DNA of 64,000 nucleotides from positions 36,564 to 100,563 of IMG/VR virus record IMGVR_UViG_3300008267_000009. One strand, 5' to 3'. Both the position numbers and the translations under genes were made by a program. Below are positions 36,274 to 52,275 of this stretch, piece after piece. The notes beneath the pieces were generated by a model. It searched no databases. It saw only the letters and a program-made list of their open reading frames with translations, and was not told where the DNA came from. Positions within the stretch are counted from its first letter, which is position 1; each line of letters opens with the position of its first letter. This stretch comes from a virus.

Positions 36274-38062
36274 TTTTAACGATCTAATTGATCTACTTGA
36301 TGGCGAAGAGTTTGAAGAGAAACCAGTAGACCTTCGTGAATTTGTTACAAGCCCAAACTATTTAGGTCTTCCTCCGTTATCAGATCTTCAATATACTTTG
36401 ATTGAAAAAAGTTCACAGATATATAAAGAGTCCACACTTATAAAACTATTTGGAGAAGAAGAAGGAAAAAGAATTGCAAAACAAACTGCAACAGAAGTAG
36501 TTGCACAGTTAGGCAAGGGAAGTGGAAAAGATTACTGTTCTACTATTGCTGTTTCATATATAGTATATTTACTATTATGCTTAAAAGATCCAGCTTCTTA
36601 TTATGGGAAGCCACCAGGAGATGCAATTGATATTATTAATATTGCTATAAACTCACAACAAGCAAACAATGTTTTCTTTAAAGGATTTAAAACTAGAATC
36701 GATAAATCTCCTTGGTTTGTAGGAAAATATGAAGCTAAAGCATCTGAAATGAAATTTGATAAAGCAATTACAGTTCATTCAGGACACTCAGAGCGTGAAG
36801 CGTGGGAAGGTTACAATGTTATTGTTGTTATTCTAGACGAGATATCTGGCTTTGCTATTGAAAATACAACAGGACACGATCAAGCTAAAACTGCTGATGC
36901 TATATACGATATGTACCGTGCATCTGTGGATTCTCGTTTTCCAGATTTTGGTAAAGTAATTCTTCTATCATTTCCAAGATTTAAAAATGATCCAATTCAA
37001 AAGTTTTATGAGTCAGTTATTGGAGAAAAAGAGACAGTAATTAGAACACATAAATTTAAAATTGACGAGGACCTTCCAGATGGAACTGAAGGAAATGAGT
37101 TTGAAATTGAATGGGAAGAAGACCATATAAAATCATACCTTATTCCAAAGGTATATGCGTTAAAGAGACCCACATGGGAAGTAAATCCAACAAGAAGTAT
37201 TGAAGATTTTAAAACAGCATTTTATAAAAATACTATGGACGCTTTGGGTAGATTTGCTTGCATGCCTCCAGAAATGATTGATGCATTTTTTAAGTCAAGA
37301 GAAAAAGTAGAAAAGGCTTTTAATAATACTGGAATTGCAGTAGATAAATTTGGAAGACTAGAAGAATGGTTTAAGCCAGACCCAGACAAAAAATATTTTA
37401 TTCACGTTGACTTGGCTCAAAAGCACGACCATTGTGCAGTTGCAATGGCACATGTTGATAGATGGGTAAATGTTAAAGTTACAAATGATTACTCTCAACC
37501 AGCTCCAATAGTACATGTAGATGCAGTAAGATATTGGACTCCTACACCAGATAAGTCTGTAGACTTTACTGAAGTAAAAGACTATATTCTTTCTTTAAGG
37601 ACAAGAGGTTTTAATATCGGTGTCTGTACCTTTGACCGATGGAACTCTCACGATATGATGCAACAATTAAAGCAATATGGAATTAATACAGAAATTTTGT
37701 CAGTTGCAAAAAAACATTATGACGATATGGCTATGGTTATTTTAGAAGAAAGAATTAGTGGCCCACACATACCGTTACTTATTGATGAATTGCTTCAGCT
37801 TAAAATTATGAGAGACAAGGTAGACCACCCACGAAAGGGCTCAAAAGATTTAGCTGATGCAGTTTGTGGATCAATATTTAATTCAATTAGCAGAACAAGA
37901 CCAGACTTGAATAATGAAATAAATATTCATACATATGAATCTATGTCCATGTATGATGATTTTAGTAGAGATAAATCAGACGTTATTAGCACAAACATGA
38001 TTCGTCCGCCCAGGATGCCAGAACGTTTGTCAGATGCCTTGGAAGGGATGGAAATAGTATGA
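36263..38062 (+). CDS. terL: Terminase large subunit
   Basis: GKGSGKD Walker A, VILDE Walker B, HVDLA nuclease, FDRWNS, KDLADA. Confidence 0.9.
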   Translation: MSFDFNDLIDLLDGEEFEEKPVDLREFVTSPNYLGLPPLSDLQYTLIEKSSQIYKESTLIKLFGEEEGKRIAKQTATEVVAQLGKGSGKDYCSTIAVSYIVYLLLCLKDPASYYGKPPGDAIDIINIAINSQQANNVFFKGFKTRIDKSPWFVGKYEAKASEMKFDKAITVHSGHSEREAWEGYNVIVVILDEISGFAIENTTGHDQAKTADAIYDMYRASVDSRFPDFGKVILLSFPRFKNDPIQKFYESVIGEKETVIRTHKFKIDEDLPDGTEGNEFEIEWEEDHIKSYLIPKVYALKRPTWEVNPTRSIEDFKTAFYKNTMDALGRFACMPPEMIDAFFKSREKVEKAFNNTGIAVDKFGRLEEWFKPDPDKKYFIHVDLAQKHDHCAVAMAHVDRWVNVKVTNDYSQPAPIVHVDAVRYWTPTPDKSVDFTEVKDYILSLRTRGFNIGVCTFDRWNSHDMMQQLKQYGINTEILSVAKKHYDDMAMVILEERISGPHIPLLIDELLQLKIMRDKVDHPRKGSKDLADAVCGSIFNSISRTRPDLNNEINIHTYESMSMYDDFSRDKSDVISTNMIRPPRMPERLSDALEGMEIV

Positions 38063-49497: not shown

Positions 49498-49920
49498 ATG
49501 GTAACAACATTTGCATGGGACCTTTTTAAGGACCCATTTTTTATTGGGTTTGATAGAGCCCTAGATACATGGAATCATGTACAAACAGTATCTGGATCTA
49601 CAAATTACCCACCATATAACGTAATCAAGGTAGATGAAGACAACTTTGTTGTCGAACTAGCTGTTGCTGGATTTTCTAAGTCAGACATTGAAATTTCAAC
49701 AGCAGATGGAAAACTCATTGTAAAGGGAGAAACAGAAGCGGAGAATAACGATTCGAAGTTTATTCACCGTGGTATTGCTGCTCGTAAATTTACTCGTGAG
49801 TGGGCGCTTGGCGAACATATGGAAGTCAAGACGGCTGAACTTAAGGACGGAATGCTAAAGATTGATATTGAACGCATTCTTCCAGAAGAAAAAAAGCCAA
49901 AGACAATTAAAATCAAGTAA
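49498..49920 (+). CDS. Small heat shock protein (Hsp20/IbpA-like)
   Basis: NYPPYNV, ELAVAGF, HRGIAARKF, DGML. Confidence 0.95.
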   Translation: MVTTFAWDLFKDPFFIGFDRALDTWNHVQTVSGSTNYPPYNVIKVDEDNFVVELAVAGFSKSDIEISTADGKLIVKGETEAENNDSKFIHRGIAARKFTREWALGEHMEVKTAELKDGMLKIDIERILPEEKKPKTIKIK

Positions 49921-49928
49921 GGTATAAT

Positions 49929-50038
49929 AGAAGTCTGCACCCCGTCACTGGGGAGTCGCAGACTATTCGGGTCGCTACCCGAAGGATACACCTGAGCATG
50001 TGTATAAACTGCTCCTTAATTTTAAGGAGAGTGAAGTA
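49929..50038 (+). ncRNA. Structured leader RNA / riboswitch candidate
   Basis: Two hairpins, H-type pseudoknot and anti-SD hairpin; see findings. Confidence 0.6.
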
Positions 50039-50224
50039 ATGCCCATTTATGAATACAAATGTGAGTGTTCACCAGAAAAAATTGTATCAAAAGAAAGATC
50101 AATAACATCTATTGAGCCTAACTATCTTTGTACAAGTTGTGGTAAAAGACTACAAAGACATTACGGATCCTTTGGAATACAGTTTAAAGGTACAGGATTT
50201 TATAAAACAGATAACGTTAAGTGA
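50039..50224 (+). CDS. FmdB-family Zn-ribbon protein
   Basis: MPIYEYKCEC...CTSCG...FKGTGFYKTD; AAGGAG SD. Confidence 0.85.
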   Translation: MPIYEYKCECSPEKIVSKERSITSIEPNYLCTSCGKRLQRHYGSFGIQFKGTGFYKTDNVK

Positions 50225-50274
50225 TTAGATGATATAATTACTATGTAACAAAATTTGTTATGTAGGAGTTATAG

Positions 50275-52275
50275 TTGACTAGGACTAAGCTATGGAGATT
50301 AACATTAACAGCCATTTTAGGGTTTGGTTGGCTATTCCTTACACCTGCTTATAGCGATGATCCATTAAGTTTAGCCGCTCAAGAAATACAAGAGCTAAAC
50401 GAAAAAGTTGGCAACCTAACAGAAGAGGCTGAAACTCAAGCCCTCATAGATATAGCAGAAGATAAATATGATGATGCAGTAGCCGCAAAAGAGGCTAGAG
50501 ATGATGCATATGATGCATATGATGCGGCGGTAGCATCAGAGGCAACATCATTACAAGAAAAGAATACAGCTCAATCAGCAGTAGATGGGCAAACAGCAAC
50601 AGTTGCTACATATTTGTCACAAAAAAATTCTGCTAAAGATGATTTAGATATAGCACAAATAAATTTTTCTACTGCAAATAGCAATCTTCAATCAGCTCAG
50701 TCAGTAATTGATAATGCTGGCGGAGATGGTCTGCAATATACCGTATACAATTTAGCAAGAATTTGGCCTAGTTATGCAGTACTAGATTCTGTAATTTGTT
50801 CTGGCACATGGAACTCAAGCTATATGGACTTACCAGTTTGTGGCAATAGATATGAAAATATAGTAGTAAAGTTTACTGGAAAAATCACTGTACCGTCATG
50901 GTTTACAACAGTAGCGTTTGCAGGATATACAGATGACGGCTTTAAAATGTATATAGATGGAGTGCTTGCAGTTAATAACTGGGTAGAGCAGGGGGCAAGA
51001 TGGAGTGCTTGGTCTCCAACGTATGATGTAACTGAAGATAAGACTTTGGATGTAGAAATATGGTGGTATAACGGAGGAGGCCCAGGATCCTATCATCTTG
51101 GATGGACAATTCCTGGTGGATCTACTGGCGCAGGTTGTGATTATGCTGGAAATCCAAGAGTATGGGGACAAGATTTTAGTTGTAATCTTAATACATTTTC
51201 TTCTGGCCCTGGTGCAACACAGGCAGAAGTTAACGCATACAATGCAGCAGTAACTGCAAAGGCGGCGGCACAGACAGATTATAATACTAAGTTAGCAATT
51301 TATAATAATAAGGTTACTGCATATAACACTGCAAATTCTACATTAACAGCGTATAATCAAACGCTGACAACTAAGACTAATACATATGATGCTGCTGTAA
51401 TAACTACAGCAAATGCTTTAACTGCTAAAAATAATACACAGTCATCTTATAATCAATCTATTATTGATTTAAATAATGCAATAGATGACGCATGGGAATT
51501 ATATAATGAAACTTGGCAATTTGAAGAACAACAAAGAGTTGCTGCAGCAATAGCTGCTGCTATGGCAAATCAACCGCAGCCAACTCCAGATGCAACAACT
51601 GATCCTACGCCTGAACCTTCTCCTGAGCCATCACCTGAACAAACTGAACCAGACGATTCCACTCCAACTCCAGATTCTGAAACCACAGATGAACCGACAC
51701 CAGATCCAACTCCTGAGACAGAGCCCACTGATGAGCCTTCACCAGAGCCTTCACCTCAGCCATCGGATATAGATCAAGAGCCAACTCCTGAACCAGAGCC
51801 AACTCCTGCTGAACCTTCTGAAGAACCATCTACCAATACTATCACAGAAGAGACAGCAAACCTAATTGCAGATTTAACAAGCAAAGATACATTAACTAAA
51901 TTAACTCCAGAGCAAAAAGCGGCGGTTGCAGAAGGCCTTGGAATTAAAACGGAAGAGATAGCAAAGGTGGCAGTATTAGCAGCTTCTGATAAAAATTTAG
52001 CAACAGCTCTAGAAGAATTCGGTGATAGAATTAAAGAGAACGCTAGTGCTCCAATGCCATATACGTTAGCAGATGCAACAACAGAGGTTGCGACAGAAGC
52101 ATTTTTATCAGACCCAATCGGAGCCATTGCAGATATAGATTTTGAAAAATTACTTAGCCCATCAGAATGGGGTAAGGATATGACAGATGACCAAAGAGAA
52201 AAAGCACAAGAAGTAGTTGTACCTGTAATTATTGCAGGAAATATTGTGGCAGCAGCCATGACAAGGAGGATATAA
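50275..52275 (+). CDS. Secreted/membrane-anchored surface protein: signal peptide, coiled coil, PA14 domain, Pro/Glu/Thr-rich stalk, C-terminal hydrophobic anchor
   Basis: TDDGFKMYIDG...INNW-like VNNW...WYNGGGP PA14 motif; PTPEPSPEP repeats; VVVPVIIAGNIVAAAMTRRI tail. Confidence 0.8.
   Translation: MTRTKLWRLTLTAILGFGWLFLTPAYSDDPLSLAAQEIQELNEKVGNLTEEAETQALIDIAEDKYDDAVAAKEARDDAYDAYDAAVASEATSLQEKNTAQSAVDGQTATVATYLSQKNSAKDDLDIAQINFSTANSNLQSAQSVIDNAGGDGLQYTVYNLARIWPSYAVLDSVICSGTWNSSYMDLPVCGNRYENIVVKFTGKITVPSWFTTVAFAGYTDDGFKMYIDGVLAVNNWVEQGARWSAWSPTYDVTEDKTLDVEIWWYNGGGPGSYHLGWTIPGGSTGAGCDYAGNPRVWGQDFSCNLNTFSSGPGATQAEVNAYNAAVTAKAAAQTDYNTKLAIYNNKVTAYNTANSTLTAYNQTLTTKTNTYDAAVITTANALTAKNNTQSSYNQSIIDLNNAIDDAWELYNETWQFEEQQRVAAAIAAAMANQPQPTPDATTDPTPEPSPEPSPEQTEPDDSTPTPDSETTDEPTPDPTPETEPTDEPSPEPSPQPSDIDQEPTPEPEPTPAEPSEEPSTNTITEETANLIADLTSKDTLTKLTPEQKAAVAEGLGIKTEEIAKVAVLAASDKNLATALEEFGDRIKENASAPMPYTLADATTEVATEAFLSDPIGAIADIDFEKLLSPSEWGKDMTDDQREKAQEVVVPVIIAGNIVAAAMTRRI
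51571..51830 (+). repeat. Low-complexity Pro-rich coding repeats
   Basis: PTPD/PTPE/PSPE units. Confidence 0.85.

Follow-up and report, generated by a model that had tools for sequence, protein, structure and literature searches.

Structure of the leader and its locus

The window analysed here is a 64,000-nt stretch (positions 36,564 to 100,563) of the 100,563-bp IMG/VR virus record IMGVR_UViG_3300008267_000009, which has an estimated completeness of 86%. On its plus strand, an hsp20 gene (49498..49920; Pfam HSP20, E = 8.8e-21; stop codon at 49918-20) is followed by a structured leader and then by a gene for a 61 amino acid FmdB-like zinc-ribbon protein (50039..50224; Pfam Zn_ribbon_8, E = 5.7e-5, which is under the gathering score). 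The subject of this analysis is the leader, and above all the 30-nt H-type pseudoknot with which it ends. This pseudoknot is one copy of a very widespread and uncatalogued module that occurs in phages, prophages, ArdC mobile elements and tombus-like RNA viruses.

The leader occurs once in the window's genome. It follows a promoter-like site of sigma-70 type (AAGACA-17 nt-TATAAT, 49900..49928, +) which matches the consensus at 10 of 12 positions and has its -10 box at 49923-28. Next comes the P1 hairpin (49932..49964, +), built from an outer AGUCUGC/GCAGACU and an inner CCCC/GGGG stem with the loop GUCACU and an asymmetric internal loop (A versus AGUC), and then the P2 hairpin (UUCGGGU-CGCU-ACCCGAA; 49966..49983, +). 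P3 (AUACAC/GUGUAU; 49986..50005, +), which has the 8-nt loop CUGAGCAU, is stem 1 (S1) of the pseudoknot. Stem 2 (S2) is formed by GAGCA within this loop (49994..49998, +) and UGCUC (50010..50014, +), and the AAAC between the stems (50006..50009, +) is the core of loop 3 (L3). The zinc-ribbon gene starts with the ATG at 50039, behind the Shine-Dalgarno (SD) sequence AAGGAG at 50024-29. TATAAT, the three hairpins, the GAGCA/UGCUC and CUCCUUA/UAAGGAG complementarities, AGUGA and the ATG all lie where the preliminary description of this DNA had placed them. The 117-nt leader has a predicted folding energy of -42.3 kcal/mol (z = -3.9), and none of 200 shuffled sequences folded equally well.

A blastn search against GenBank phages gave no match, and the best hsp20 match among cultured phages has only 42% identity. 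The window's phage encodes a WhiB protein, which suggests an actinobacterial host. RNase J is generally present in actinobacteria.

Conservation of the leader and its gene context

Related loci were gathered on the strength of an encoded protein similar to hsp20 or the zinc-ribbon protein. Among the 80 loci picked by hsp20 similarity alone, 74 carry the element directly 3' of hsp20. The remaining six comprise three which stop at or just beyond the hsp20 match, two of the diverged L004 type, and one truncated inside P1. All fetched IMG/VR loci together gave 263 element matches with 66 distinct sequences, ranging in length from 56 to 115 nt. Since these lengths are not multiples of three and P2 is gained and lost, the element is non-coding, and a coding region was ruled out. 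The fold, the recurrence behind hsp20 and the covariation in P2 and P3 bear out the earlier suggestion of a real, conserved, structured non-coding leader with an H-type pseudoknot.

The motif (T/G)(A/G)(G/C)TATAAT stays 4–6 nt before P1 behind at least five different upstream C-termini, whether or not these belong to hsp20. Because this distance is fixed behind so many different upstream genes, promoter and leader evidently travel together. We infer that transcription starts at the foot of P1. P1 itself is near-invariant in the clade, its inner stem, loop and AGUC bulge showing no variation at all; covariation therefore neither supports nor refutes it. More distant copies have other, unrelated hairpins in its place. 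P2 is variable and optional, being absent, replaced, doubled or joined by an extra hairpin in relatives, and six of its seven pairs are changed on both sides. Two smaller proposals did not survive this comparison. The complementarity of the P1 loop UCACU to AGUGA (50030-34) is put down to chance, because AGUGA is limited to the window's nearest relatives, and the third copy of a supposed triple GUCRC repeat falls in the variable P2. In one contig with another 5' hairpin domain (L333:~70-90), the hairpin-pseudoknot leader is preceded by a micro-ORF (open reading frame) of four codons, MRYQ, which has a strong SD.

The genes downstream of the leader vary. In most relatives a 135 amino acid SNase-type nuclease gene comes first and the zinc-ribbon gene second, the two overlapping at TAATG; elsewhere the first gene belongs to a holin-endolysin pair or encodes a 2-oxoglutarate (2OG) oxygenase. 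The link to FmdB in the preliminary description finds no support in this arrangement. Phages of the L004 type have a variant leader with another P1 domain ahead of a holin-like gene and an endolysin. Locus L127 has two copies (L127:846-873 and L127:2422-2480) in the order IMPDH-like gene, copy b, 2OG oxygenase, SNase nuclease, hsp20, copy a (which lacks P2) and zinc-ribbon gene. In copy b the stems of P1 and its AGUC bulge are retained, but the loop reads UUCAUC instead of GUCACU. The complete 109,912-bp genome of a relative, G003, has three pseudoknot copies including the main one. Its second copy is diverged and lies directly after a stop codon, without a promoter. Its third (L288:5364-5397; AAAUC / CUAGGCAC / GAUUU, AAAACUGCCC) is a weak match (20.9 bits) that ends 4 nt before the 5' end of a tRNA-Asp. 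Within this phage group as well as in unrelated contigs, the pseudoknot recurs with different 5' hairpins and different downstream genes; examples are L004, the second copy of L127, the second and third copies of G003, and L333.

Two IMG/VR contigs found with a loose pattern (L394 and L354) have the pseudoknot directly before FmdB-like genes (MPRYDYKC... and MPVYEYKC...), with the S2 sequences GGACA/UGUCC and GGGUA/UGCCU. An association of the pseudoknot with a small zinc-ribbon protein may thus recur beyond the window's clade. In the zinc-ribbon protein of the window, the C-terminus FGIQFKG(N/T)GFYKTDN is strongly kept in relatives that are otherwise variable.

Covariation in the pseudoknot

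In the clade alignment three pairs of P3 covary (GC 19, AU 13 and CG 7; GC 35 and CG 9; AU 39 and UA 6). The C-G pair that closes its loop is present in 45 of 46 clade copies and in all 109 wider-family copies, the search pattern for the latter set having required C-G. AAAC is kept in all 46 clade and all 109 family copies, partly by construction as the patterns required it. It is followed by U in about 90% of copies, and 0–9 extra nucleotides are tolerated on its 5' side, which varies in length and sequence among relatives. In S2, within the clade, a C-to-U change leads to a G.U pair in 15 of 46 copies and a few copies are mismatched; one double change from A-U to G-C is seen, in L184 and L208 (CUGGGCA ... 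AAACUGCCC), and the third copy of G003 has it too. The pseudoknot ends about 21–25 nt before the start codon. In the main clade its spacing to the SD is tight and conserved, at about 10–12 nt, and no U-run follows S2.

A generic H-type scan of G000, the genome of this phage, for copies with other S2 sequences found 10, as against 6–13 in shuffled sequences, and further copies in this phage were therefore rejected. The motif AAACUGCUC was considered as a dispersed genome motif and rejected, its other copies in G000 and G003 sitting within conserved coding sequence.

A wider family of pseudoknots

A search of IMG/VR with a loose pattern (GAC/GUC, CU, the flanking G and A, and AAAC fixed; 3' strand of S2 free) returned 101 distinct matches. 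All five S2 pairs could form in 65 of them and at least four in 87, where chance would give fewer than one. In the family alignment S2 is 87.5% paired and covaries strongly, with many double changes at three pairs: 10-28 (GC 82, CG 4, UA 3), 11-27 (GC 49, AU 33, UA 8, CG 5) and 12-26 (CG 44, UG 27, GC 11, UA 10). The exact GAGCA/UGCUC helix is not kept in the wide family, where S2 is variable. With an A/T third P3 pair, the exact pattern was found in only two IMG/VR contigs of the same sequence (L333/L334).

The family has a preferred position. Of 85 copies, 74 have the stop of an upstream ORF within 120 nt (median 12.5 nt), 45 have an SD with a start codon within the next 150 nt (median 32 nt), and 6 have a tRNA within the next 130 nt; some copies lack a nearby ribosome-binding site. 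Using the pattern of the window's pseudoknot with a P3 of at least 4 bp, we found intergenic copies in genomes of Saccharibacteria, Wolfebacteria, Methanobrevibacter, Lactobacillus, Eubacteriales, Calditrichaeota and Melioribacteraceae. Some of these copies lie in prophage head modules, and neighbouring genes include Mu-F followed by a scaffold protein and an SPP1 portal followed by a scaffold protein. ArdC-type anti-restriction genes adjoin three of about ten such copies (two upstream, one downstream; L307:1780-1805, L328 and L301/L304), the hosts being Melioribacteraceae, Calditrichaeota and Methanobrevibacter. Copies directly before U-runs were found in L298, L301, L306 and L324.

Copies in RNA viruses

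Ten IMG/VR contigs (L368:1442-1689, L397:923-1179(-), L386, L377, L362, L391, L435, L448, L335 and L371) have the same pseudoknot just 3' of a large ORF, which is a replicase where it could be identified, and behind it an element of 200–250 nt. Pfam matches to RdRP_3 (one contig) and Viral_coat (three contigs) mark at least four of the ten as plus-strand RNA viruses of tombus-like type. In L391, L335 and L435 the 200–250-nt element lies immediately before the coat gene. Six of the ten elements match the GIR1/lariat-capping ribozyme model (RF01807) with E values as low as 3e-8, although their scores of 23–45 bits fall short of the gathering score of 100, and conserved blocks of the element are CCAAAACGG, CUACACGGC and GGAUCCCAUACA. 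These sub-threshold matches occur behind the pseudoknot in the tombus-like RNA-virus contigs only, and there are none in the window. If true, a lariat-capping-like ribozyme in intergenic regions of RNA viruses would be remarkable.

Comparison with known RNAs

A search of the window region against Rfam 15 gave no match at the gathering score or at E up to 10, and nine variant loci likewise gave none. The families without a match include preQ1-I/II/III, SAM-II/V, fluoride, pistol, hatchet, HDV-like, manA, wcaG and glnA, among others. HDV-like, pistol, hammerhead and hairpin ribozymes were rejected, as their helix order or core motifs do not fit and Rfam finds no match. The glutamine riboswitch of Melnitz-like phages (PMC9004378) is unrelated.

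The closest known relatives in design are exoribonuclease-resistant RNAs (xrRNAs). The coremin motif (xrRNA-C), found in beny-, cucumo- and many other RNA viruses, consists of a short hairpin, which must be closed by a C-G pair and has a YGAD or YGNNAD loop, a spacer GUUAAACUAC, which depends on its three As and on CU but accepts insertions at the 5' end, and a second hairpin (hp2), also needed, directly downstream (PMC6546385, PMC10520033). The window's pseudoknot shares the obligatory C-G loop-closing pair, the AAAC(U) spacer core with its insertion-tolerant 5' side (PMC6546385), a pseudoknot-like tertiary contact between loop and spacer, and a position in an untranslated or intergenic region, which in coremin is at the start of protected RNAs. 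Members of the wider family also have CGUUAAACU in common with the coremin sequence. The two differ in that the hairpin stem here covaries freely instead of being GUC/GAC, that S2 here is a 5-bp Watson-Crick helix, and that the carrier here is a DNA phage of bacteria.

A Watson-Crick variant of coremin, xrRNA-WCC, has been described from Sanxia picorna-like virus 5 and from selected variants (PMC10321173). It has in common with the phage family an H-type pseudoknot, an antiparallel Watson-Crick S2 starting with GAG/CUC, and an A-rich L3 ending in AAAC. Its GAG/CUC pseudoknot stem was proven by compensatory mutation (PMC10321173), whereas S2 of the phage family is supported by natural covariation. 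S2 of xrRNA-WCC has 3 bp and uses the C of AAAC, while here it has 5 bp and starts after AAAC; hp2 is required there for resistance to Xrn1. Judged from its predicted pairing, the window's pseudoknot is built like coremin and xrRNA-WCC but fails some of the features of membership. The class 3 xrRNA of the ST9a type (PMC11702639) has a different architecture and was set aside. In the literature we found no report of xrRNAs in phages.

The aptamers of preQ1-I, SAM-II/V and fluoride riboswitches resemble the pseudoknot in size, topology, conserved loops with a covarying S1, and an A-rich L3, as well as in having a 3' strand near the SD which is able to compete with SD pairing. They differ from it in gene context, the present family having no coherent gene association and many copies that are unrelated to any SD. 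The 5' stabilisers of Gram-positive bacteria and their phages (5' stem-loops, the SP82 polypurine element, the hbs leader; PMC5737220 and general knowledge) likewise combine a promoter-proximal structure with a nearby strong SD, and the leader could, as they do, bar RNase J from the coding region. Those stabilisers, however, consist of plain hairpins or of ribosomes bound to the RNA, whereas the present element is a pseudoknot that is conserved in sequence and common to phages, mobile elements and RNA viruses.

Possible function of the leader

For the leader, we consider a role in shielding or insulating the message more likely than one in sensing a molecule. Our preferred interpretation, by analogy and put forward tentatively, is that the pseudoknot leader acts as a constitutive 5' stabiliser or insulator, or as a boundary element. 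The leader would then be a composite: within about 6 nt of the -10 box come the clade-specific hairpins P1 and, optionally, P2, and behind them the 30-nt pseudoknot. P1 would cap the 5' end. The pseudoknot would present a mechanical barrier at the 5' edge of the ribosome footprint, stopping 5'-to-3' decay (by RNase J or by 5'-end-dependent scanning) at the edge of the ribosome-binding site, and by occupying the anti-SD-like CUCC it would leave the true SD open. The outcome would be a stabilised and insulated downstream message. Both the exonuclease block and any effect on translation are what we infer for this leader. A mechanical block of bacterial 5'-3' decay is plausible by analogy, because a flaviviral xrRNA is able to halt RNase J1, a bacterial enzyme, in vitro (PMC5760640) and because the place of the pseudoknot right after the replicase ORF of tombus-like viruses is the classical position of an xrRNA.

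Several observations weigh against a simple stabiliser. The 8-nt loop CUGAGCAN is not of the YGAD or YGNNAD type: the family loop is CUGAG(C/U)AN, with U and not G at the second position, and the 7- and 8-nt coremin loops that resist Xrn1 begin with CG (PMC10520033). Loop 1 (L1), a single essential G in xrRNA-WCC, is here an invariant CU. Because loop, L1 and S2 length differ from those of coremin and xrRNA-WCC, we set the phage pseudoknot apart as a variant. The second hairpin which coremin requires is weakly or not enriched: a non-overlapping hp2 of at least 4 bp could be formed in 67% of the clade as against 46% of shuffled sequences, and in the wide family it averages 2.9 versus 2.5 bp. 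The near-invariance of the P1 loop and bulge is not explained by a purely mechanical role. In L298 (Saccharibacteria) and L324 (Wolfebacteria), the pseudoknot stands at a gene end, followed by a U-run and a convergent gene, so that it looks terminator-like and has nothing downstream to protect. Finally, the hairpin that could sequester the SD in the window is strong enough to make a real switch plausible.

That hairpin (ACU.CUCCUUA / UAAGGAG.AGU; 50008..50032, +) overlaps the 3' strand of S2, with CUCCUUA (50012-18) complementary to the SD UAAGGAG (50023-29). It is the basis of the chief alternative, a translational ON-switch in which UGCUC pairs either with the P3 loop, leaving the SD free, or with the SD, closing it. 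The choice between the two would depend on temperature or on a ligand, metal or protein, with the invariant loop and bulge of P1 as a possible site of recognition. In the window the hairpin reaches -10.5 kcal/mol (z = -4.1) and is thus strong, and the preliminary description was right that it overlaps the pseudoknot. Across the family the hairpin fares less well. Over 72 distinct tails the hairpin has a median of -3.9 and a mean of -3.9 kcal/mol, compared with -2.5 kcal/mol for shuffled spacers (z = -0.8); 39% do no better than the control, and many variants with CUCA mismatches form hairpins of only about -1.8 kcal/mol. CUC does pair with the GAG of the SD in the minimum free energy structure of 65 of the 72 tails, which is the expected tendency of any CUC near AAGGAG. 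Hints of co-variation come as single events: L063 maintains the hairpin with a different 3' arm, and in L184/L208, where S2 is changed on both strands, the SD is altered from AAGGAG to GGAGG and still pairs with CCCC. A shorter form (CUUA-AUUU-UAAG) could coexist with the pseudoknot as an hp2-like hairpin of CUUA with UAAG. Two further features would suit a switch: S1 covaries although its closing pair, L1, L3 and S2 stay conserved, a pattern also seen in small pseudoknot aptamers, and P1 is invariant in a clade where P2 and P3 drift. On the other side stand the absence of similarity to the preQ1, SAM-II and other pseudoknot riboswitch models, and the gene context. Copies of the module precede functionally unrelated genes or RNAs (a nuclease, the zinc-ribbon gene, a holin-endolysin pair, an oxygenase, scaffold proteins, ArdC, tRNAs, a ribozyme-like RNA), and the same pseudoknot occurs far from any SD and at gene ends. 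A generic module of this kind, placed in most cases directly behind a stop codon and in some with no ribosome-binding site in the vicinity, does not show the pattern of a dedicated ligand-sensing riboswitch. The riboswitch of the preliminary description therefore stands as a conserved, covarying, structured RNA, with a strong SD hairpin in the window, and falls short in its incoherent downstream genes; on balance we regard an ON-switch as doubtful, if a serious contender. We are equally hesitant about a bolder proposal, namely that the element is a prokaryotic exoribonuclease-resistant RNA and would be the first class of xrRNA from DNA phages and mobile elements, with an ancestry or design common with coremin and xrRNA-WCC, coupled here to P1 as an invariant sensor through which a phage or host factor would switch protection and SD access.

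Other roles seem less probable. The leader always begins a few nucleotides from the -10 box and heads a multi-gene unit, which would suit an element acting on transcription, either an RNA that modifies RNA polymerase in the manner of the HK022 put antiterminator or a pseudoknotted pause site or terminator marking unit boundaries. The put RNAs are two or three stem-loops with an internal bulge, a form like that of the window's leader, and the distant copies directly before U-runs would also agree with such a role. We think it unlikely all the same: the main clade lacks a U-run there, its tight SD spacing favours translation or decay, and presence in viruses copied by an RNA-dependent RNA polymerase argues against a role specific to the bacterial RNA polymerase. 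Somewhat less likely again is that the invariant P1, an inverted repeat at the presumed transcription start that shows no compensatory change, is mainly a DNA operator (+1 to +30) for a phage or host repressor, with the pseudoknot alone acting as RNA. Here we prefer an RNA hairpin, because the centres of the repeat differ between the pairs CUGC/GCAG and CCCC/GGGG (A opposite AGUC), which fits an RNA internal loop and not a dyad-symmetric site, and because the unrelated hairpins that replace P1 in distant copies point to a structural RNA role. Least probable of all is a processing signal, in which the coaxial pseudoknot would imitate the acceptor/T-arm of a tRNA or in some other way bring in RNase P or a different endonuclease, so that polycistronic phage RNA is cleaved at unit boundaries. 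The tRNAs behind 6 of the 85 family copies and 4 nt behind the third copy of G003, the tRNA clusters that adjoin hsp20 in relatives and the general boundary position of the family agree with it; no NCCA-like tail follows S2, however, most copies lie away from tRNAs, and the G003 match is the weak one given above. There is a very small chance, slightly above that of a processing signal, that none of these five readings (stabiliser, ON-switch, transcription-level element, DNA operator or processing signal) is correct.

What can be claimed for the window thus shifts from a private riboswitch of the FmdB gene to an instance of a generic module joined to a clade-specific invariant hairpin. Should the pseudoknot block RNase J or ribosomes, a 30-nt device which marks and protects the 5' edge of functional RNAs would be common to eukaryotic RNA viruses and to the phages and mobile elements of archaea and of different bacterial phyla. 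Phage messages would then be seen to follow a new architectural principle, Rfam would gain a large family that it lacks, and a compact part would be available with which to stabilise or insulate synthetic transcripts.

A second promoter-like site

A second TATAAT (50233-38) lies 3' of the zinc-ribbon gene and is followed by an 11-bp hairpin. The 43-nt stretch from 50238 to 50280, which holds this hairpin and a second one of 5 bp, has a predicted folding energy of -11.1 kcal/mol (z = -3.0). The 3' arm of the 11-bp hairpin extends into GUAGGAG, the SD of a gene for a 666 amino acid PA14-domain protein (TTG at 50275), and the region 50233-50277 may be another promoter with a 5'-hairpin leader.

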